Positions 1 through 29,382 of a stretch of DNA of 64,000 bases are shown in pieces (positions within the stretch are counted from its first letter, which is position 1; every line of letters begins with the position of its first letter). Source of the DNA: Psilocybe cubensis (taxonomy: Eukaryota); contig CM038999.1 of assembly GCA_017499595.2 (NCBI GenBank), positions 1 through 64,000 of the forward strand, read 5' to 3'. The position numbers and the translations under genes are program-made. The notes beneath the pieces are model-generated. The model was not told the DNA's origin and searched no databases. It was given only the letters and a program-made list of their open reading frames with translations.

Positions 1-146
1 ACCCTAAACCCTAAACCCTAAACCCTAAACCCTAAACCCTAAACCCTAAACCCTAAACCCTAAACCCTAAACCCTAAACCCTAAACCCTAAACCCTAAAC
101 CCTAAACCCTAAACCCTAAACCCTAAACCCTAAACCCTAAACCCTA
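1..146. repeat. Terminal telomeric tract (CCCTAAA)n / (TTTAGGG)n; left chromosome end
   Basis: About 20 perfect CCCTAAA units from base 1, with the C-rich strand on +. Confidence 0.97.
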
Positions 147-707
147 ACCTAACCCCAACCCTAAGCTAACTAAGTCTAACCTTAGTAGGAAGTAAGGTAG
201 GCGTGTGAACTTCCGAACGGCATGTGATTGTGAAGGGCCGGATCTAATTTAGTACATGGGAAAAGTTACTTAGTACTTCTGGAAAAGTTCCTTAGTACCG
301 TGGAAACATTTTTGATGGACCGGATCATGAACTGTCCAATTAAGATTCACAACAATCAATCATTCTATTGTTTGATTGTTAGGTAAGGACCCAGGTAAGC
401 TATTTATACTCTAGACATGTGAATATTCCCATGTCGCGGTTACTCGGAGCCACGTAACCAGAGTAATCTATATCCATGTGATTCACATCACAGTCAATAA
501 CCCACGATGTCAAAGAACAAAAGTGTTGGATCCACTTTTGACAGGTTACCATGTGCCACATCGACCCGTGACACTCTGTTCATCAGAGACCTGTCTAACT
601 TGACAATAAACATTGACAGATTTGTGATAGTCGGTAAGATACATGACAGCTGCGCAGCATCACTTCACGCGCTGTCATCGGATGTCTAGAACATTCCTTC
701 TAAGAAT

Positions 708-877: not shown

Positions 878-3800
878 ATGTCATCCCAATATTCTGCTGC
901 TTTCTCTCGTGCCATGTCCCCCTCCCTGGACGCACTCACCCAGGCCGTCGTCAACAACACCGTCTTCGGCGTCAACGATGAAGCAGGCCGCCAAAACGCT
1001 CTCATCGACGAGCTGGCCACTGTGGTCATCAAGAAAATAGCTGAGTGCCGCTCCGTTGATCAAATAATAGACTGCGTCTTTTTTGACTATCGCGCTGCCC
1101 TTAGGGAGTTTCTCCTCAACCTCGCATCGTGGTGCGACAAGAGGGAAACAGTCAGGGCTAGCCTTGAGCGCCTTGAACTTGCCGTTAGCGCAGGGCAGCA
1201 CCCCCAATCGCCTTAAGGTGAAGGCTCCCGAGTTCCAACTCACGAAGGAATTCGCGGATGCCGGGTCAGCGGAGGCTCTTCGAGTCTCTACTACGTTCTC
1301 CACCGCTCGTGACGTCTCTTCCAAAAGGCGATTAACGACGGCGCCATTCAGGCGAAAAAGGACGAACTGGCCTTTTGGGAGGATAAATGCGCACTCGCTT
1401 CTTGCTATGAAGCTGCTGCGGTCATCGTTAAGACAACTTACGAAGACCGCAAGTCCAGCTATAAGCTCCCCGTTTTCTCTACAGACAACAAGGGAGTTCG
1501 TCGCATAGCAGAGTGGGTAACGTCGCCGCAAAAGAAAGCCGAGTGCAGTGCGCTGCAAACTATACTGCCGGCTATCTTTTCTCATATCAAACAAATTGTC
1601 AAATTGCGCCACCGCGCTTTGGCAATTAAGATTGAGAAAAAGCGGTCGACCGCGGCTACAGCCGATGTCGAGATGGCCGACGCGACCAAACCAGGTCCGT
1701 CGATTCAATCCCTTATTGATAAGGGCTTGAATGCACGTCTTAAGAAGCTCAACCTTGGATATGTGGGCAAGAAGGCAGGTTTTCGTAACCCTTCACCCAT
1801 AACTTTGGATACTAATTATTATTCTAATTACCCAGACTTCGTCTGGCCAGAGTTCGTCCAAGGCTCCTCAACCTCAGGCCAAGAAAACTGGCCCTTCGAA
1901 ACCCAAGTCGTCGTCGACGCCTTCGCAACGCAAGCCTCAAACCAAGGCTTCCAACAAGGTCGACAACAAGAAGAAAGGGAAGGGGAGAGCTCCCGTCAAG
2001 AACAACAATCCAAAGGGAAAGGGAAAGGCAAGAGCCTAAACACGCGGTCTAATGTAGTACCTTTTACGTCGGTAAGACCCGCTTTCCCCAACTCTATTCC
2101 TGACGATATACTCACCATGACTAAAACAGACGCAGTTTCATTTGTACACCTCAATACCCCAATTTCTTTCTTATTGGCTGGCCAGTATAGATCTAGTGTA
2201 CATTGTAGTCCTGGTGTTGTAGTTCCGGTTGATGTAGCAAACGACTTATCTCTCGGTTTAAATTATATGTTTTTCACACTGCCTTCTCAAAGTCTGATCA
2301 TGCAAGCATGGAATGATTTTCAACGAAGAATAAGATGGCGTATCTATTTTTTGTTTAAAGAAGGCATGAATAAACCTTTTGATCCAGATTATGGAGTAAG
2401 TTCTAAGAAAAAAGAAAAACCTCCTGTATTACCGCAATTTATGGAACTTGGCCTTTCAATGGGACGTCGGTACGTTATTAAAACGATCGCAAGTATCCCG
2501 GAAGAAGCCCTCAAGGAGATGCGAAAGCACGCGTTCTCTCCTAAAAGGGACAAGATCCAAAAGTTTCTTATCGATAACAACTATGTTATTACGATGACAG
2601 ATAAGAATCTTGGCCTCGCGGTGTCTGAACGCGACTGGATATTAAGGAATGAGCTCAATCTTCTTGAAGATGAACGTAATTACGAAGAGCTAGAATTCGA
2701 AGTTGCGCAAGAAGTAATGAAGAGCAAAATGATCCAGATGCAAACTCTTGCACGTACCGTCGAAGATGAACATCTGTTTCTATTTGAACTTGGGTTGTCT
2801 CGATTCTTTCTATCGAATGTACCGGAAGACGGATCATCGTTCAAGTATCCTCAATTTCATGGTATACCTAAAATCCACAAAAAACCTACTGGATTTAGGC
2901 CCATAATTCCGTGTCACTCTGTAGTATTTAATCCTGCAGCCAAGTTTGTATCAAAAGAGCTTAAGCCGATTATTAAATCGACTCCTTCAATCATTCACGG
3001 AACGAAGGATCTCTTTACGAGATTAAGCCAATTGCGTATAGACCCCCAAACGACAATGGTATTTTGTCACCGGGGATGTAGTTGCTTTCTATCCCAATAT
3101 TCCGTTGGACTTGTGCATCGAAATCGTTTGTAATATGTACGAGGAATGGTTACTCAACGCTTCGGAAGAAAACACTGCATTAGCCCATATTAATCCAAAT
3201 TCGTTAGAGAATAACTTGGTTAAATTGGGCATCTTTAAACGTGCTATCGAGATTGGCAATACGCAATTGATAACACAACATGGGTCTAGATATTTTAGAC
3301 AAAAAAAATGGCCTCGCAATGGGCGTCGCGGATTCTCCGGACCTTGCTAACCTCTTTGGAGCCCATTTTGAAATAAAGTCAAAAATCTTAAACCACCCAA
3401 ACGTGGCCTTCTATGGAAGGTACATCGACGATTGTTTCGCAATTGTTTACGCCGAGTCCGAAGCACTTGCACTTAATCTTATTAAAGAAACAATAAAGTT
3501 CGATGGTTGTGTTATCGAATGGGCTGTTTCCTCGTCGGGATGTCAATTTCTCGATGCTTTCATATTCAAGGAGTCTGGAAAACTTCATTGGAAGCCATTT
3601 GTCAAGACAGGAAACAACCGAGAACGAGTTCCATGGGTATCACATCATCCTTTTGGACGTCAAACGTGGCGTCTACATTGGAGAGTTATCCAGGTTAGCC
3701 GTGCTATGTAGTACCAAGGAAATCTACATCGGAGCAATTAGAGACCTTAACGCTCTCTATTTGATGCGCGGTTATCCCGAAAACCTAGTCATGTCTTGGT

Positions 3801-4417
3801 GTAAGAAGAATATACAAGAACGTTGGGAAAAGCGATTCGCTTTACGAGTCGCAGAGCACGACGAATCCATTCTTGTACTTAAAACCAGATTTGATCAGGT
3901 ATGGAATTGGTTTTCAGCTGCTGAACTTGGAAAGACTGTTACCGAGTACTGGTCGGCATGGTATGAACATGCCGAGAAAGGTCTGTATAGTGCAGACTCG
4001 TCCAGACCCCTTATCAAACCAGATCCAAATTACGTTCACGACCTCGATGATGTTCGCCCGGAGCTGTTCACACAGATCCTCGTGGACGGAGAAACTGAGT
4101 TCGTACCGGATTTGAGGAAGATAGGACTACTCGGAAGTCGTTGGATAGTATCGCGAAAGCGCAATACTAATCTTTTCGACCTTGCAAATGTGTGGAAGAA
4201 AACAGTCTTTCGTAAACTGGATGAAAACATCGCTGAAAAAGGTGGTGTTGTTCCCGAAACTCAAAACGTTAATGAAACTTATCATTCTGCTCTAGTTGAA
4301 GCTGCTGAACAGATAAGTATCGAAAGTGATAACGAGATAATACTTCATAGACGTTCAACCTCACAAGAGAGGGAACATCCAGAATTCGGCAGAATATCCA
4401 AATCTTACAACCGATGA
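878..4417 (+). pseudogene. RT polyprotein of unit 1, split by several small insertions (real decay or read errors)
   Basis: Near-identical to the intact 1176-aa copies but broken into ORFs 878-1216, 1604-3133, 3280-3711 and 3503-4417. Insertions fall mostly in homopolymers. Confidence 0.75.
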
Positions 4418-5944: not shown

Positions 5945-6873
5945 CAAGTACTCGTCCTCTCCCAAACTCCTGCCGCTTGTGCCTTCCCAACTCATCCGGG
6001 AGCCCTTTCGTCACTGATCTTGCCCTTGACTCGGGGACGTTTCATCGACATGTTGGCTGCCTCACGGCAAGCGGGGCCCTTTTTCTTTCACTCGCTCACG
6101 CCTTCTATGTTGGGTTACGGAGGTCATACAAACTCGTTTTAGTCTAGCTGCGGGGTTATCCAGCTATGATGACTTTGTAATTCGAGGGCGCGCAGTTCTT
6201 CAATGGGTATGGACATCAGGTGAGAGTACACTGGGGGTTGTCAGGACCAGCTCTGCTGGATACGCTCCTGGCAAGTCGGTTGCAGCCGGCGACACTACCG
6301 AATTGCTGGGACGTCCTAAAGCTTGTGGGTACCGCCGACCGCTGGAAACAGCCTAGGCACCGGTGGCGACCGGGTATGGTAACAATCCCCAAGATTCAGC
6401 GAAAGCTGGAATGGATAATCAGCAGCGAATCCGTAACGGTCACGCCGACGGAAGCGTTCAACGACTAGGTGGTAGTGGGGTCTTCGGATCTTAAGATATA
6501 GTCTTGGGAGTGGGGAAACCCACATCTGGTATCTAAACCGCGCCTCGCTGCTTACGAGGACGGCCCGAAGTCCAGAACCGCTTAAAACGCGGGTGACCCG
6601 GCCTCCCCTTAGTAAAGGGAGTTAACACAAGGATGGACAAATAGTTCGTCGCCGGAAATGAACCTGTGGCTGTAATGGCTGATGTGGCGCCCCTTGGTAA
6701 AGGGCTTAAAGGGTATTAGCCTGCCATGTCCAATGGCATGAGAGTGTCCCTTGGTAAAGGACTTAATAGGCAATAGCCTGCTCTTTTGTCATGAGCGGTA
6801 TGTAGTGATCGTTTGCCTGTACGGTAGCGCCCATTGCTTGCACTGGTCCACGCCCGTAAAAAATCACGAGCCG
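5945..6873 (+). ncRNA. Group I self-splicing intron (IC1-like, 929 nt, no homing endonuclease ORF) inserted in the hammerhead cleavage triplet
   Basis: Exact insertion relative to empty pLTRs (CAGCCCT|CTGGC): the exon ends in U and the intron ends in G. P AATTGCTGGG 6301; Q AATCAGCAG 6417; R GTTCAACGACTA 6456; S AAGATATAGTC 6493; P3 CACTACC 6293 / GGTAGTG 6471; P9 GAAA-loop hairpin 6510-6523. IGS GGGGTTGT 6234-6241 pairs with exon ACAGCCCT, with U.G at the splice site. Confidence 0.92.
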
Positions 6874-6985: not shown

Positions 6986-9900
6986 ATGTCTTCCACTTAC
7001 TCTGCTGCCTTCTCTCGTGCCATGTCCCCCACCCTGGACGCACTCACCCAGGCTGTCGTCAACAACACAGTTTTTGGCGTCAACGACGAAGCTGGCCGCC
7101 ACAACGCCCTCATCGACGAGTTGGCCACTGTCGTCATCAAGAAAATAGCTGAGTGCCGCTCCATTGACCAGATTGTAGACTGCGTCTTTTTTGACTATCG
7201 TGCTGCCCTTAGGGAGTTTCTCCTCAACCTCGCATCGTGGTGCGATAAGAGGGAAACAGTCAAGGCTAGCCTCGAGCGCCTTGAACTTGCCGTTAGCGCA
7301 GGCAACACCCCCAATCGCCTTCGGGTGAAGGCTCCCGAGTTCCAACTTACGAAGGAATTCGCGGATGCCGGGTCAGCGGAAGCTCTTCGAGTTTCCTCTA
7401 CGTTCTCCACCGCTCGTGATGTCTTCCAAAAGGCAATCAACGACGGCGCCATTCAGGCGAAAAAGGACGAACTGGCCTTTTGGGATGATAAATGCGCACT
7501 CAATAACTGTTATGAAGCTGCTGCCCTCATCGTTAAGACAACTTACGATGATCGCAAATCCAGCTATAAGCTCCCCGTTTTCTCTACAGACAACAAGGGA
7601 GTTCGTCGAATAACAGATTGGGTAGTGTCACCGCAGAAGAAGGCTGAATGCAGCGCATTGCAAACCATTTTGCCAGCCATCTTCTCTCATATCAAACAGA
7701 TTGTCAACTTGCGCCACCGCGCTTTGGCAATCAAGATTGAGAAAAAGCGGTCGACTGCGGCAACAGCCGATGTCGAGATGGCCGATGCGACCAAACCAGG
7801 TCCATCGATTCAATCCCTTATTGATAAGGGCTTGAATGCACGTCTCAAGAAGCTCAACCTTGGATCTGTGGGCAAGAAGGCAAGTTCTCGTAACCCTTCA
7901 CCCATAATTCTGGATACTAATTACTATTCTAATTACCCAGACTTTGTCTGGCCAGAATTCGTCCAAGGCTCCTCAACCTCAGGCCAAGAAAGCTGGCCCT
8001 TCGAAATTCAAACCCTCGTCGACGCCTTCGCAGAAGAAGCCCCTAACCAAGGCTTCCAACAAGGTCGACAACAAGAAGAAAGGGAAGGGGAGAGCTCCCG
8101 TCAAGAACGATCCAAAGGGAAAGGGAAAGGCAAGAGCCTAGACGCGCGGTCTAATGTAGTACCTTTTACGTCGGTAAGACCCGCCTTCCCCAACTCTATT
8201 CCTGACGATATACTCACCATGACTAAAACAGACGCAGTTTCTTTTGTACACTTACATACGCCGATCTCATTCTTGTTGGCTGGCCAGTATCGTAGTAGTG
8301 TACACTGTAGTCCTGGTGTGGTGGTCCCTGTAGATATAGCAAATGATTTATCACTCGGACTCAATTATATGTTTTTTACTCTACCTTCTCAAAGTCTGAT
8401 CATGCAAGCATGGAATGATTTTCAACGAAGAATAAGATGGCGTATCTATTTTTTGTTTAAGGAAGGCATGAACAAACCTTTTGATCCAGATTACGGAGTA
8501 AGCTCAAAAAAGAAAGAGAAACCTCCAGTATTACCGCAATACATGGAACTTGGCCTTTCGATGGGACGTCGGTACGTGCAACGCACGATCGCAAGTATCC
8601 CGGAAGAAGCCCTTACGGAGATGCGAAAGCACGCGTTCTCTCCTAAAAGGGACAAGATCCGTAAGTTTCTTATCGATAACAACTATGTTATTACGATGAC
8701 AGATAAGAATCTTGGCCTCGCGGTGTCTGAACGCGACTGGATATTAAGGAATGAGCTCAATCTTCTTGAAGATGAACGTAACTATGAAGAGTTAGAATTC
8801 GAAGTTGCGCAAGAAGTAATGAAGAGCAAAATGATCCAGATGCAAACTCTTGCACGTACCGTCGAAGATGAACATCTGTTTCTATTTGAACTTGGGTTGT
8901 CTCGATTCTTTCTATCGAATGTACCGGAAGACGGATCATCGTTCAAGTATCCTCAATTTCATGGTATACCTAAAATCCACAAAAAACCTACTGGATTTAG
9001 GCCCATAATTCCGTGTCACTCTGTAGTATTTAATCCTGCAGCCAAGTTTGTATCAAAAGAGCTTAAGCCGATTATTAAATCGACTCCTTCAATCATTCAC
9101 GGAACGAAGGATCTCTTTACGAGATTAAGCCAATTGCGTATAGACCCCAAACGACAATGGTATTTTGTCACCGGGGATGTAGTTGCTTTCTATCCCAATA
9201 TTCCGTTGGACTTGTGCATCGAAATCGTTTGTAATATGTACGAGGAATGGTTACTCAACGCTTCGGAAGAAAACACTGCATTAGCCCATATTAATCCAAA
9301 TTCGTTAGAGAATAACTTGGTTAAATTGGGCATCTTTAAACGTGCTATCGAGATTGGCAATACGCAATTGATAACACAACATGGGTCTAGATATTTTAGA
9401 CAAAAAAATGGCCTCGCAATGGGCGTCGCGGATTCTCCGGACCTTGCTAACCTCTTTGGAGCCCATTTTGAAATAAAGTCAAAAATCTTAGACCACCCAA
9501 ACGTGGCCTTCTATGGAAGGTACATCGACGATTGTTTCGCAATTGTTTACGCCGAGTCCGAAGCACTTGCACTTAATCTTATTAAAGAAACAATAAAGTT
9601 CGATGGTTGTGTTATCGAATGGGCTGTTTCCTCGTCGGGATGTCAATTTCTCGATGCTTTCATATTCAAGGAGTCTGGAAAACTTCATTGGAAGCCATTT
9701 GTCAAGACAGGAAACAACCGAGAACGAGTTCCATGGGTATCACATCATCCTTTGGACGTCAAACGTGGCGTCTACATTGGAGAGTTATCCAGGTTAGCCG
9801 TGCTATGTAGTACCAAGGAAATCTACATCGGAGCAATTAGAGACCTTAACGCTCTCTATTTGATGCGCGGTTATCCCGAAAACCTAGTCATGTCTTGGTG

Positions 9901-10516
9901 TAAGAAGAATATACAAGAACGTTGGGAAAAGCGATTCGCTTTACGAGTCGCAGAGCACGACGAATCCATTCTTGTACTTAAAACCAGATTTGATCAGGTA
10001 TGGAATTGGTTTTCAGCTGCTGAACTTGGAAAAACTGTTACCGAGTACTGGTCGGCATGGTATGAACATGCCGAGAAAGGTTTGTATAGTGCAGACTCGT
10101 CCAGACCCCTTATCAAACCAGATCCAAATTACGTTCACGACCTCGATGATGTTCGCCCGGAGCTGTTCACACAGATCCTCGTGGACGGAGAAACTGAGTT
10201 CGTACCGGATTTGAGGAAGATAGGACTACTCGGAAGTCGTTGGATAGTATCGCGAAAACGCAATACTAATCTTTTCGACCTTGCAAATGTGTGGAAGAAA
10301 ACAGTCTTTCGTAAACTGGATGAAGACATCGCTGAAAAAGGTGGTGTTGTTCCCGAAACTCAAAACGTTAATGAAACTTATCATTCTGCTTTAGTTGAAG
10401 CTGCTGAACAGATAAGTATCGAAAGTGATAACGAGATAATACTTCATAGACGTTCAATCTCACAAGAGAGGGAACATCCAGAATTCGGCAGAATATCCAA
10501 ATCTTACAACCGATGA
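6986..10516 (+). CDS. Penelope-like RT polyprotein, 1176 aa; no GIY-YIG endonuclease recognisable
   Basis: RT motifs IPKIHK..FRPII, FVTGDVVAFYPNI, QKNGLAMG, GRYIDD, FLD; PLE-type thumb region (SHHP..VKRG..GELSR). Confidence 0.95.
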   Translation: MSSTYSAAFSRAMSPTLDALTQAVVNNTVFGVNDEAGRHNALIDELATVVIKKIAECRSIDQIVDCVFFDYRAALREFLLNLASWCDKRETVKASLERLELAVSAGNTPNRLRVKAPEFQLTKEFADAGSAEALRVSSTFSTARDVFQKAINDGAIQAKKDELAFWDDKCALNNCYEAAALIVKTTYDDRKSSYKLPVFSTDNKGVRRITDWVVSPQKKAECSALQTILPAIFSHIKQIVNLRHRALAIKIEKKRSTAATADVEMADATKPGPSIQSLIDKGLNARLKKLNLGSVGKKASSRNPSPIILDTNYYSNYPDFVWPEFVQGSSTSGQESWPFEIQTLVDAFAEEAPNQGFQQGRQQEEREGESSRQERSKGKGKGKSLDARSNVVPFTSVRPAFPNSIPDDILTMTKTDAVSFVHLHTPISFLLAGQYRSSVHCSPGVVVPVDIANDLSLGLNYMFFTLPSQSLIMQAWNDFQRRIRWRIYFLFKEGMNKPFDPDYGVSSKKKEKPPVLPQYMELGLSMGRRYVQRTIASIPEEALTEMRKHAFSPKRDKIRKFLIDNNYVITMTDKNLGLAVSERDWILRNELNLLEDERNYEELEFEVAQEVMKSKMIQMQTLARTVEDEHLFLFELGLSRFFLSNVPEDGSSFKYPQFHGIPKIHKKPTGFRPIIPCHSVVFNPAAKFVSKELKPIIKSTPSIIHGTKDLFTRLSQLRIDPKRQWYFVTGDVVAFYPNIPLDLCIEIVCNMYEEWLLNASEENTALAHINPNSLENNLVKLGIFKRAIEIGNTQLITQHGSRYFRQKNGLAMGVADSPDLANLFGAHFEIKSKILDHPNVAFYGRYIDDCFAIVYAESEALALNLIKETIKFDGCVIEWAVSSSGCQFLDAFIFKESGKLHWKPFVKTGNNRERVPWVSHHPLDVKRGVYIGELSRLAVLCSTKEIYIGAIRDLNALYLMRGYPENLVMSWCKKNIQERWEKRFALRVAEHDESILVLKTRFDQVWNWFSAAELGKTVTEYWSAWYEHAEKGLYSADSSRPLIKPDPNYVHDLDDVRPELFTQILVDGETEFVPDLRKIGLLGSRWIVSRKRNTNLFDLANVWKKTVFRKLDEDIAEKGGVVPETQNVNETYHSALVEAAEQISIESDNEIILHRRSISQEREHPEFGRISKSYNR
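7880..7940 (+). other. Putative 61-nt GC-AG spliceosomal intron inside the RT ORF (present in all six units)
   Basis: AAG|GCAAGT donor, TACTAAT/TTCTAAT branch candidates, CCCAG| acceptor. Removal opens a Lys-rich frame ending at TAG 8141. Confidence 0.65.
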
Positions 10517-11225: not shown

Positions 11226-11289
11226 AGCCACTGAAGAGTCTATAAAGACGAAAGGGCTGGCTGCTGATAACAATCAACAGCCCTCTGGC
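11226..11289 (+). ncRNA. Hammerhead ribozyme (intact, haplotype B), 3' pLTR of unit 2
   Basis: Core and proximal stems identical to 708-772; this is the empty site corresponding to intron 5945-6873. Confidence 0.88.
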
Positions 11290-11963
11290 CTTCTTTCCAT
11301 TTAACTCACAGTTTAAACAAGTCGCTCGCACCTCGCTTCGCTCGGTGCTCGCTCCCCCCCTAAACCTAAACCTAAACCCTAAACCCTAAACCCTAAACCC
11401 TAACCTAACCCCAACCCTAAGCTAACTAAGTCTAACCTTAGTAGGAAGTAAGGTAGGCGTGTGAACTTCCGAACGGCATGTGATTGTGAAGGGCCGGATC
11501 TAATTTAGTACATGGGAAAAGTTACTTAGTACTTCGGGAAAAGTTCCTTAGTACCGTGGAAACATTTTTGATGGACCGGATCATGAACTGTCCAATTAAG
11601 ATTCACAACAATCAATCATTCTATTGTTTGATTGTTAGGTAAGGACCCAGGTAAGCTATTTATACTCTAGACATGTGAATATTCCCATGTCGCGGTTACT
11701 CGGAGCCACGTAACCAGAGTAATCTATATCCATGTGATTCACATCACAGTCAATAACCCACGATGTCAAAGAACAAAAGTGTTGGATCCACTTTTGACAG
11801 GTTACCATGTGCCACATCGACCCGTGACACTCTGTTCATCAGAGACCTGTCTAACTTGACAATAAACATTGACAGATTTGTGATAGTCGGTAAGATACAT
11901 GACAGCTGCGCAGCATCACTTCACGCGCTGTCATCGGATGTCTAGAACATTCCTTCTAAGAAT

Positions 11964-12136: not shown

Positions 12137-15100
12137 ATGTCATCCCAATACTCTGCTGCATTCTCTCGTGCCATGTCCCCTACCCTGGACGCACTCACCC
12201 AGGCCGTCGTCAACAACACTGTCTTCGGCGTCAACGATGAAGCAGGCCGCCATAACGCTCTTATCGACGAGCTGGCCACTGTGGTCATCAAAAAAATAGC
12301 TGAGTGCCGCTCCGTTGACCAAGTCATAGACTGCGTCTTTTTTGACTATCGTGCTGCCCTCAGGGAGTTTCTCCTCAACCTCGCATCGTGGTGCGACAAG
12401 AGGGAAACAGTCAAGGCTAGCCTCGAGCGCCTTGAATCTGCCGTTAGCGCAGGCAACACGCCCAATCGCCTTAAGGTGAAGGCACCCGAGTTCCAACTTA
12501 CGAAGGAATTCGCGGATGCCGGGTCAGCGGAGGCTCTTCGAGTCTCCACTACGTTCTCTTCCGCTCGTGATGCCTTCCAAAAGGCAATTAACGACGGCGC
12601 CGTTCAGGCGAAAAAGGACGAGCTGGCTTTTTGGGATGATAAATGCGCGCTCAACTCTTGCTACGAAGCTGCTGCCCTCATCGTTAAGGCAACTTACGAT
12701 GATCGCAAATCCAGCTACAAGCTCCCTGTTTTCTCTACAGACAACAAGGGAGTTCGACGTATAGCAGAGTGGGTAGTGTCTCCGCAAAAGAAAGCCGAAT
12801 GCAGTGCGCTGCAAACTATACTGCCGGCGATCTTTTCTCATATCAAACAGATTGTCAACATGCGCCACCGCGCCTTGGCAATTAAGATTGAGAAAAAGCG
12901 GACGACTGCGGCAACAGCCGATGTCGAGATGGCCGATGCGACCAAACCAGGTCCATCGATTCAATCCCTTATTGATAAGGGCTTGAATGCACGTCTCAAA
13001 AAGCTCAACCTTGGATCGGTGGGCAAGAAGGCAAGTTTTCGTAACCCTTCACCCATAATTCTGGACACTAATTATTACTCTAATTACCCAGACTTTGTCT
13101 GGCCAGAATTCGTCCAAGGCTCCTCAACCTCAGGCCAGGAAAGCTGGCCCTTCGAAACCCAAGTCGTCGTCGACGCCTTCGCAGAGGAAGCCTCAAACCA
13201 AGGCTTCCAACAAGGTCGACAACAAGAAGAAAGGGAAGGGGAGAGCTCCCGTCAAGAACAACGATCCAAAGGGAAAGGGAAAGGCAAGAGCCTAGACGCG
13301 CGGTCTACTGTAGCATCATTTACGTCGGTGAGACCCGCCTTCCCCAACTCTATTCCTGACGATATACTCACCATGACTAAAACAGACGCAGTTTCTTTTG
13401 TACACCTCAATACCCCGATTTCATTCTTATTGGCTGGCCAGTATAGATCTAGTGTACACTGTAGTCCTGGTGTTTCGGTCCCTGTTGATGTAGCAAATGA
13501 TTTATCTCTTGGACTCAATTATATGTTTTTTACACTGCCTTCTAAAAATCTGATCATGCAAGCATGGAATGATTTTCAACGAAGAATAAGATGGCGTATC
13601 TATTTTTTGTTTAAAGAAGGCATGAATAAACCTTTCGATCCAGACTATGGAGTAAGCTCTAAAAAGAAAGAGAAACCTCCAATGTTACCGCAATTTATGG
13701 AACTTGGCCTTTCAATGGGACGTCGGTACGTTATTAAAACGATCGCAAGTATCCCGGAAGAAGCCCTTAAAGAGATGCGAAAGCACGCGTTCTCTCCTAA
13801 AAGGGACAAGATCCAAAAGTTTCTTTTCGATAACAACTATGTTATTACGATGACAGATAAGAATCTTGGCCTCGCGGTGTCTGAACGCGACTGGATATTA
13901 AGGAATGAGCTCAATCTTCTTGAAGATGAACGCAACTACGAAGAGTTAGAATTCGAAGTTGCGCAAGAAGTTATGAAGAGCAAAATGATTCAGATGCAAA
14001 CTCTCGCACGTACCGTCGAAGATGAACATCTGTTTCTATTTGAACTTGGGTTGTCTCGATTCTTTCTATCGAATGTACCGGAAGATGGATCATCGTTCAA
14101 GTATCCTCAATTTCATGGTATACCTAAAATCCACAAGAAACCTACTGGATTTAGGCCCATAATTCCGTGTCACTCTGTAGTATTTAATCCTGCAGCCAAG
14201 TTTGTATCAAAAGAGCTTAAGCCGATTATTAAATCGACTCCTTCAATCATTCACGGAACGAAGGATCTCTTTACGAGATTAAGCCAATTGCGTATAGACC
14301 CCAAACGACAATGGTATTTTGTCACCGGGGATGTAGTTGCTTTCTATCCCAATATTCCGTTGGACTTGTGCATCGAAATCGTTTGTAATATGTACGAGGA
14401 ATGGTTACTCAACGCTTCGGAAGAGAACACTGCATTAGCCCATATTAATCCAAATTCGTTAGAGAATAACTTGGTTAAATTGGGCATCTTTAAACGTGCT
14501 ATCGAGATTGGCAATACGCAATTGATAACACAACATGGGTCTAGATATTTTAGACAAAAAAATGGCCTCGCAATGGGCGTCGCGGATTCTCCGGACCTTG
14601 CTAACCTCTTTGGAGCCCATTTTGAAATAAAGTCAAAAATCTTAGACCACCCAAACGTGGCCTTCTATGGAAGGTACATCGACGATTGTTTCGCAATTGT
14701 TTACGCCGAGTCCGAAGCACTTGCACTTAATCTTATTAAAGAAACAATAAAGTTCGATGGTTGTGTTATCGAATGGGCTGTTTCCTCGTCGGGATGTCAA
14801 TTTCTCGATGCTTTCATATTCAAGGAGTCTGGAAAACTTCATTGGAAGCCATTTGTCAAGACAGGAAACAACCGAGAACGAGTTCCATGGGTATCACATC
14901 ATCCTTTGGACGTCAAACGTGGCGTCTACATTGGAGAGTTATCCAGGTTAGCCGTGCTATGTAGTACCAAGGAAATCTACATCGGAGCAATTAGAGACCT
15001 TAACGCTCTCTATTTGATGCGCGGTTATCCCGAAAACCTAGTCATGTCTTGGTGTAAGAAGAATATACAAGAACGTTGGGAAAAGCGATTCGCTTTACGA

Positions 15101-17198: not shown

Positions 17199-18127
17199 CA
17201 AGTACTCGTCCTCTCCCAAACTCCTGCCGCTTGTGCCTTCCCAACTCATCCGGGAGCCCTTTCGTCACTGATCTTGCCCTTGACTCGGGGACGTTTCATC
17301 GACATGTTGGCTGCCTCACGGCAAGCGGGGCCCTTTTTCTTTCACTCGCTCACGCCTTCTATGTTGGGTTACGGAGGTCATACAAACTCGTTTTAGTCTA
17401 GCTGCGGGGATATCCAGCTATGATGACTTTGTAATTCGAGGGCGCGCAGTTCTTCAATGGGTATGGACATCAGGTGAGAGTACACTGGGGGTTGTCAGGA
17501 CCAGCTCTGCTGGATACGCTCCTGGCAAGTCGGTTGCAGCCGGCGACACTACCGAATTGCTGGGACGTCCTAAAGCTTGTGGGTACCGCCGACCGCTGGA
17601 AACAGCCTAGGCACCGGTGGCGACCGGGTATGGTAACAATCCCCAAGATTCAGCGAAAGCTGGAATGGATAATCAGCAGCGAATCCGTAACGGTCACGCC
17701 GACGGAAGCGTTCAACGACTAGGTGGTAGTGGGGTCTTCGGATCTTAAGATATAGTCTTGGGAGTGGGGAAACCCACATCTGGTATCTAAACCGCGCCTC
17801 GCTGCTTACGAGGACGGCCCGAAGTCCAGAACCGCTTAAAACGCGGGTGACCCGGCCTCCCCTTAGTAAAGGGAGTTAACACAAGGATGGACAAATAGTT
17901 CGTCGCCGGAAATGAACCTGTGGCTGTAATGGCTGATGTGGCGCCCCTTGGTAAAGGGCTTAAAGGGTATTAGCCTGCCATGTCCAATGGCATGAGAGTG
18001 TCCCTTGGTAAAGGACTTAATAGGCAATAGCCTGCTCTTTTGTCATGAGCGGTATGTAGTGATCGTTTGCCTGTACGGTAGCGCCCATTGCTTGCACTGG
18101 TCCACGCCCGTAAAAAATCACGAGCCG
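17199..18127 (+). ncRNA. Group I intron copy 2 (929 nt) in the hammerhead cleavage triplet
   Basis: Near-identical to 5945-6873 with the same junctions. Confidence 0.92.
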
Positions 18128-28453: not shown

Positions 28454-29382
28454 CAAGTACTCGTCCTCTCCCAAACTCCTGCCGCTTGTGCCTTCCCAAC
28501 TCATCCGGGAGCCCTTTCGTCACTGATCTTGCCCTTGACTCGGGGACGTTTCATCGACATGTTGGCTGCCTCACGGCAAGCGGGGCCCTTTTTCTTTCAC
28601 TCGCTCACGCCTTCTATGTTGGGTTACGGAGGTCATACAAACTCGTTTTAGTCTAGCTGCGGGGTTATCCAGCTATGATGACTTTGTAATTCGAGGGCGC
28701 GCAGTTCTTCAATGGGTATGGACATCAGGTGAGAGTACACTGGGGGTTGTCAGGACCAGCTCTGCTGGATACGCTCCTGGCAAGTCGGTTGCAGCCGGCG
28801 ACACTACCGAATTGCTGGGACGTCCTAAAGCTTGTGGGTACCGCCGACCGCTGGAAACAGCCTAGGCACCGGTGGCGACCGGGTATGGTAACAATCCCCA
28901 AGATTCAGCGAAAGCTGGAATGGATAATCAGCAGCGAATCCGTAACGGTCACGCCGACGGAAGCGTTCAACGACTAGGTGGTAGTGGGGTCTTCGGATCT
29001 TAAGATATAGTCTTGGGAGTGGGGAAACCCACATCTGGTATCTAAACCGCGCCTCGCTGCTTACGAGGACGGCCCGAAGTCCAGAACCGCTTAAAACGCG
29101 GGTGACCCGGCCTCCCCTTAGTAAAGGGAGTTAACACAAGGATGGACAAATAGTTCGTCGCCGGAAATGAACCTGTGGCTGTAATGGCTGATGTGGCGCC
29201 CCTTGGTAAAGGGCTTAAAGGGTATTAGCCTGCCATGTCCAATGGCATGAGAGTGTCCCTTGGTAAAGGACTTAATAGGCAATAGCCTGCTCTTTTGTCA
29301 TGAGCGGTATGTAGTGATCGTTTGCCTGTACGGTAGCGCCCATTGCTTGCACTGGTCCACGCCCGTAAAAAATCACGAGCCG
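28454..29382 (+). ncRNA. Group I intron copy 3 (929 nt) in the hammerhead cleavage triplet
   Basis: Same sequence and junctions, here in a haplotype-A pLTR. Confidence 0.92.

Follow-up and report, generated by a model that had tools for sequence, protein, structure and literature searches.

A translated intron as the probable splice switch between an ORF1 protein and an ORF1–reverse transcriptase fusion in telomeric Penelope-like elements of Psilocybe cubensis and other mushroom-forming fungi

Telomeric elements of Psilocybe cubensis, together with their relatives in other mushroom-forming fungi, carry within one long open reading frame (ORF) a short intron that is very probably optional and would switch the element between two products. 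If retained, the intron would be translated and the RNA would give a 1176-aa fusion of ORF1, linker and reverse transcriptase (RT); if spliced, the frame would shift by +1, giving a 364-aa ORF1 protein whose basic tail is disordered. The extent of splicing would then govern how much of a structural and probably RNA-coating protein is made per enzyme, provided that cells both splice and retain the intron and need ORF1 protein in excess. What sequence comparison establishes is how the arrangement is built, that it is conserved and that the element is under selection in both readings.

Identity and chromosomal setting of the element

The window, as we call the whole stretch of DNA analysed, comprises 64,000 nt (positions 1 to 64,000 of the forward strand) at the start of contig C2 (CM038999.1) in assembly GCA_017499595.2, a genome of 46.6 Mb in 21 contigs. 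It contains five intact tandem units, each with an ORF of 1176-1177 aa on the + strand, and one broken terminal unit. The features that identify the element are:

1..147, + strand: terminal (CCCTAAA)n telomeric array, which the 5' end of the element faces
6986..10516, + strand: read-through ORF of 1176 aa, comprising the ORF1 core, the translated intron, the linker and a Penelope-like element (PLE)-type RT
11231..11420, + strand: hammerhead-like core with stems that fold, after which come CCCTAAA repeats at the 3' end of the unit

The 40 scored copies of the element lay near contig ends, on the + strand at contig starts and on the - strand at the opposite ends. Copies near the end of C4 (about 4.129-4.145 Mb) are oriented opposite to their neighbours, representing either an inverted arrangement or a misjoin. 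Tail matches at C7:104037, C7:3089317, C15:129800 and C8:3257780 are more distant from contig ends than the main arrays are and may be relics of former chromosome ends.

The RT carries DKN at residue 573 and YIDD at residue 846. This DKN was invariant across 52 aligned proteins, and a DKN/DKG motif upstream of the core is expected of PLE-type RTs. A Pfam scan of the 1176-aa ORF returned no families; the near-identical protein P0040 has a precomputed PF00078 assignment. At the level of a pattern test, the ORF gave neither a pattern match nor a Pfam match for a GIY-YIG endonuclease. The core motif near unit ends, which we take to be hammerhead-like, occurs 14 times in the window, near the end of each unit and with CCCTAAA tracts after it; none of the Rfam hammerhead families matched the window at the gathering score. 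The nearest named homologues were P. cubensis proteins (identity of at most 94% for ORF1 and 97% for the entire ORF), and Coprinopsis cinerea has an ORF1 homologue (P0146). Judged by its sequence, the element fits an endonuclease-less, telomere-attached Penelope-like element of the Coprina type.

Further observations concern the array itself. In the telomere-proximal unit (879-4417) small frameshifts split the ORF into several pieces, through decay or assembly error. At 6148-6525, 17483-17779 and 28657-29034, within an insert that separates element units, the window matches Rfam group I introns (70.9-73 bits), a nuclear occurrence outside the rDNA; each match begins shortly after a hammerhead-like core (5891, 17145 and 28400). 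The repeat unit of the telomere is TTTAGGG, a 7-mer, compared with the TTAGGG reported for C. cinerea in the available part of PMC12230235.

Intron and reading frames in the window

The features relevant to the proposed switch are:

6986..7879, + strand: exon 1, the 298-aa ORF1 core common to both products
7880..7940, + strand: 61-nt (3n+1) phase-0 GC-AG intron without a stop in the RT frame
7916..7921, + strand: predicted branch-point hexamer ACTAAT, read from the sequence
7941..8141, + strand: dual-coding region, read in the +1 frame as a 66-aa Lys-rich tail plus stop and in the RT frame as a Gln/Glu/Gly-rich linker
13031..13091, + strand: the same intron in the next tandem unit, with further copies starting at 1775, 19134, 24291 and 30391

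A preliminary description of this DNA had proposed the 61-nt intron and a 364-aa product, and the sequence bears out both. The donor reads AAG/GCAAGT (the oblique marks the splice boundary) and the acceptor CAG, and a fixed consensus score puts the intron at rank 1 of the 227 donor candidates that the ORF offers. Its removal leaves 364 aa, with the stop ending at 8141 after a 66-aa tail of pI 11.1. That the retained intron is free of stops, and that the +1 frame is open in the units, also held: all six junctions found in the window combine a 61-nt intron with an open +1 tail of 66-67 aa. Counting against a switch, the spliced mRNA would have a 3' UTR of more than 2 kb unless it ended early; poly(A)-like hexamers occur downstream of the +1 stop, the first at 9074.

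Variation within this genome does not discriminate the two frames. Differences between copies had been described as conservative in the +1 frame (QRK/QKK) and radical in the RT frame (ATQ/AEE). This contrast is real but selective, as other +1 changes are radical (PKS/FKP, L/Q, S/L), and among the seven haplotypes of the 65 redundant junction matches the variable columns were distributed 7/5/5 over +1 codon positions 3/2/1. The 3-nt indel between intact copies, previously read as support for the +1 frame, carries no such weight because the RT frame alone already demands it. The open +1 frame was likewise rejected as evidence, since the region is T-poor (11-14% T) and the third frame is for this reason often open too (median 65 codons). 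Strong support comes from the sequences of divergent relatives.

Conservation among relatives

A metagenome scan confirmed 127 relatives, the best 80 of which were kept and combined with the window to give 81 sequences; as these were found with a read-through alignment and the best-scoring retained, the set may favour read-through elements. Matches to the ORF1-end and RT-start profiles within 900 nt were present in 50/81, and these 50 elements, forming 35 clusters at 80% identity, constituted the analysed set (an extra row for L094, due to a later frameshift, was dropped). Every candidate intron of 44-90 nt in the linker was scored with a simple fixed consensus, blind to phase and length class.

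The linker was in the same frame and free of stops in all 50 elements, with a length of 246-747 nt. Its top-scoring intron was 3n+1 in length in 48/50 elements (45 in phase 0, 3 in phase 1) and in 34 of the 35 cluster representatives, and ranked first of 119-320 ORF-wide candidate donors in 46/50, seven of them with ties. Two elements (L069 and L125) yielded a 3n intron in the whole-linker scan and a 3n+1 intron in a narrower scan, and were left out of the selection tests. Branch hexamers of the CTRAY type were present in the relatives. The predicted tails were 51-120 aa long with a K+R fraction of 0.23-0.46, ended in a K/R-G-K/R motif in 28/34 representatives and carried Y[VIL]P in 11/34. Among control +1 runs taken from the RT part, only 1/1092 was as long and basic as the tails. 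The stop ending the tail (8139-8141 and homologous stops) was TAG in 24/34 representatives.

Seventeen of the 31 unpaired loci were also inspected. Five had a phase-0 GT intron of 73-79 nt (3n+1) and an RG/RGG-rich tail of 111-123 aa, and the other 12 were either cut at a contig end or had RT-frame stops upstream, as in truncated copies. A distant clade (L095, L096, L097, L099, L101 and L117) differs in having longer introns (73-79 nt) and, in place of Lys-rich tails, tails of 111-123 aa with RG/RGG repeats and a YVPPP motif. At the sequence level, the intron layout is conserved family-wide, across several mushroom-forming orders.

Selection on both readings

The per-frame dN/dS comparison suggested in the preliminary description was run on the relatives. 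Across 14 within-cluster pairs, dN/dS in the overlap was 0.23 in the +1 frame versus 1.41 in the RT frame, and the flanking ORF1 and RT segments, read in the RT frame, gave 0.14 and 0.16. With one pair per cluster, 111/197 substitutions in the overlap were third-position changes in the +1 frame (P = 3e-11). When the codons of each tail were resampled synonymously, the RT frame was expected to stay open in 1.3/34 representatives, compared with 34/34 observed. Taken together, these three results suggest that the tail is the selected protein of the overlap, while the RT frame is kept open there as a linker. Inside the intron, with splice signals excluded, 28/59 substitutions were at RT-frame third positions (P = 0.01), so the intron behaves as if translated. 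The dual-coding region proposed earlier is thus borne out by +1 purifying selection in divergent relatives and by the RT frame being open in 50/50 elements, and both products appear to be under selection.

Alternative readings of the intron

Donor type varied in a way that bears on how partial splicing might arise. A GT donor was present in 47/48 elements with a 3n+1 intron, with GC found only in the element of the window. All 65 (redundant) junction matches from this genome have the GC donor. At the donor codon, read-through homologues encode Val and the window element Ala, and the Psilocybe cyanescens model P0036 has Ala-Ser at the same place, implying a GC donor. On these sequences, GC looks like a Psilocybe-lineage variant. 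The telomere-proximal unit (879-4417) has the donor variant GCAGGT. The preliminary description traced the ratio of ORF1 protein to RT to the weak GC donor, which would have to keep splicing incomplete, and GC donors are generally weaker than GT donors; their retention throughout the junction matches of this genome, and by implication in P. cyanescens, would agree with such a role. As a mechanism, however, it was unsupported. Fourteen of the 48 elements have a perfect AG/GTRAGT donor and still keep the read-through frame, so that GC is not the general cause of partial splicing, and from these sequences weak donors do not explain it in general. The GC donor of the window is otherwise a perfect consensus match and would at most tune the ratio in one lineage. 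We consider it unlikely that GC sets the ratio. The switch between a basic ORF1 protein and an RT fusion, which the preliminary description tied to this donor, otherwise stands on the splice signals, the selection on the +1 frame and the RT frame kept in 50/50 elements.

The same switch could in principle operate through a second donor:

7868..7869, + strand: alternative in-frame GT donor, 12 nt upstream and of poor consensus, apparently the one at which public P. cubensis gene models of 360-361 aa are joined

Use of this site would give a 73-nt intron that is not of the GC-AG type and a 360-aa protein. Against the testimony of the gene models, gene-finding programs often disallow GC donors, the upstream site (TCT/GTGGGC) fits the consensus poorly, and it is the GC site that ranks first and that lines up with the donor of relatives, which lies at K-K-V. 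We regard its use as quite unlikely and retain 7880-7940 as the putative optional intron.

Two further readings dispense with optional splicing and are much less probable. A +1 ribosomal frameshift might reach the basic tail, as has been said for Athena ORF1; the +1 frame does open 11 codons ahead of the acceptor, and the legend of Fig. 1 in PMC8557442 provides a precedent in an ORF1 separable via a frameshift with a pseudoknot. Such a frameshift is nevertheless very improbable here, as it leaves unexplained the conserved donor, branch point and acceptor, the 3n+1 lengths of 46-79 nt and the T-rich intron interior (31% T versus 11%), and the region folds no better than shuffled sequences (z -1.6). 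It is also conceivable that the intron is always spliced, with the RT translated from the spliced RNA as a separate ORF2 by reinitiation or internal entry, a two-ORF layout that exists in Athena and in the ascomycete Coprina element described in the available part of PMC13159263. Yet in none of the 34 representatives does the RT frame have an ATG at a distance of up to 30 nt from the +1 stop, in 28/34 its first ATG lies inside the conserved RT profile, and constant splicing would account for neither the open read-through frame nor the coding constraint on the intron, making this reading more improbable still. That the linker of a single-ORF element is merely low in complexity, with a +1 frame open by chance in T-poor sequence, agrees with the often open third frame and the uninformative variation within the genome but is scarcely credible given the concentration of substitutions at +1 third positions and 3n+1 introns in 48/50 elements versus the one third expected.

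The short ORF1 product

Intron-aware gene models predict the basic-tailed short form across many Agaricomycete genera. This included Psilocybe, Hypholoma, Trametes, Mycena, Paxillus, Athelia, Russula, Schizophyllum and Coprinopsis. Basic-tailed short proteins made up 56 of 132 new matches, and the 20 whose source was checked were all genome gene models, which are predictions and not transcripts. Among the listed members of the 30 clusters examined, no spliced-form protein came from an intron-blind source. In their available part, the supplements of a C. cinerea long-read study (PMC12230235) mention neither the homologue nor Penelope/Coprina, and their larger tables may differ.

The AlphaFold model of the homologue P0001 consists mostly of long helices (mean pLDDT 75.7), with a tail disordered from about residue 291. 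ORF1 matched no Pfam family and, at E <= 0.001, no Foldseek entry; VIA-align returned generic helical bundles (top Z 7.9), and Atlas matches, which include plant-virus coat proteins, reached at most 0.84, below the reliable range; ORF1 was accordingly assigned to no fold. A profile match of ORF1 among solved structures was rejected as spurious and due to low complexity. Dimer prediction for residues 15-292 of P0001 passed with a score of 0.51 (best control 0.00), with contact agreement between runs of at least 0%, pLDDT of at least 45 and one of the three runs scoring 0; the mark was reached by 21/30 solved homodimers and 0/23 monomers from microbes and by 17/29 and 0/30, respectively, from eukaryotes. 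These predictions give weak support to ORF1 being an oligomeric structural protein. From their composition, Lys-rich or, in the distant relatives, RG/RGG-rich, we infer that the tails may bind nucleic acid.

Intron retention through retrotransposition

A search of the genome with the tail protein returned 155 candidates, 150 of which were scored, all with a +1 open frame of 77-78 aa. As an intron-less copy would give more than 360 aa, the intron has been kept in every scored copy. In the orientation of this element, extension of the G-rich 3' end of a chromosome would presumably have to copy sense RNA, and the RT would come only from sense RNA that is unspliced. Given a cis-preference of the RT for its own RNA, retention of the intron after retrotransposition would follow. 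This account, in which telomere priming requires a sense template, cis-preference preserves the intron and the switch is Agaricomycete-wide and independent of that in Copia elements, is possible, and we put it forward tentatively. Against it, recombination between chromosome ends may offer copies another way of spreading, and a copy without the intron would in any case be a dead end. The available text of PMC8557442 calls the significance of intron retention in PLEs unknown, and that of PMC3846280 leaves open whether antisense or unspliced-sense RNA provides the template. The present element would tie RT synthesis to unspliced sense RNA and, if the account is true, this would provide a simple cause, in this clade, for the long-standing puzzle of introns in Penelope-like elements.

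Discussion

The logic of the proposed switch is already known from Copia elements. The barley Ty1/Copia element BARE1 has a facultative intron of 104 nt, according to the available part of PMC3735527. Excision of that intron changes the reading frame, so that the ORF stops ahead of the enzymes, as the sequence predicts for the element here. However, BARE1 is an LTR element in which the stop follows three residues after Gag, whereas the shifted frame of the present element encodes a selected basic tail of 51-120 aa that overlaps the linker. The available text of PMC5580714 describes the shGAG strategy in Arabidopsis EVD and other Ty1/Copia elements and in Drosophila copia, where alternative splicing sets an excess of structural over catalytic protein; by analogy, this is the logic that we propose. 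The introns of those elements are about 300 nt (3 kb in copia) and coupled to premature termination, and the class of element is unrelated. Membership of Ty1/Copia, which would entail LTRs, Gag, protease, integrase and RT-RNase H, was rejected given the PLE-type RT, the telomeric tandem units and the lack of such Pfam domains. The resemblance to Copia is one of mechanism only.

Among Penelope-like elements, the available part of PMC13159263 assigns one ORF to Coprina and two to Athena, and its own element, from Ascochyta lentis, has two. Like the present element, Coprina has a DKN RT, lacks GIY-YIG and resides at chromosome ends with its one long ORF directed towards the centromere. Coprina also carries a hammerhead motif with reverse-complement telomeric repeats, to which the hammerhead-like core and CCCTAAA tracts here may correspond. 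In contrast to the element here, the descriptions of Coprina in the available parts of PMC8557442 and PMC13159263 include no optional intron, overlapping +1 tail or second product. The Athena elements of bdelloid rotifers are likewise endonuclease-less telomeric PLEs with ORF1, a coiled-coil protein in Athena, upstream of the RT. According to the available parts of PMC8557442 and its preprint, whose figure marks conserved introns, Athena ORF1 is separable by a frameshift with a pseudoknot, unlike the intron found here; this comparison derives from the figure legend in PMC8557442. The portions available of PMC4209133, 10.64898/2026.07.22.740005, PMC6431247, PMC5718144, PMC12230235 and PMC7473861 do not describe the intron. 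Our literature searches found no switch intron described for Penelope-like elements, and earlier accounts or supplements may hold one. A switch of this kind in Penelope-like elements, in which the intron is translated and the overlapping tail is under selection, appears undescribed.

Many fungal proteins of 330-390 aa annotated as 'hypothetical' would, on this reading, be retroelement ORF1 products. Our analysis suggests that Coprina elements, treated so far as single-ORF elements, would encode two proteins, including a structural ORF1 product like that of other retroelements. Both would arise from a dual-coding stretch preceded by an intron that is translated, an arrangement conserved in several orders of mushroom-forming fungi.
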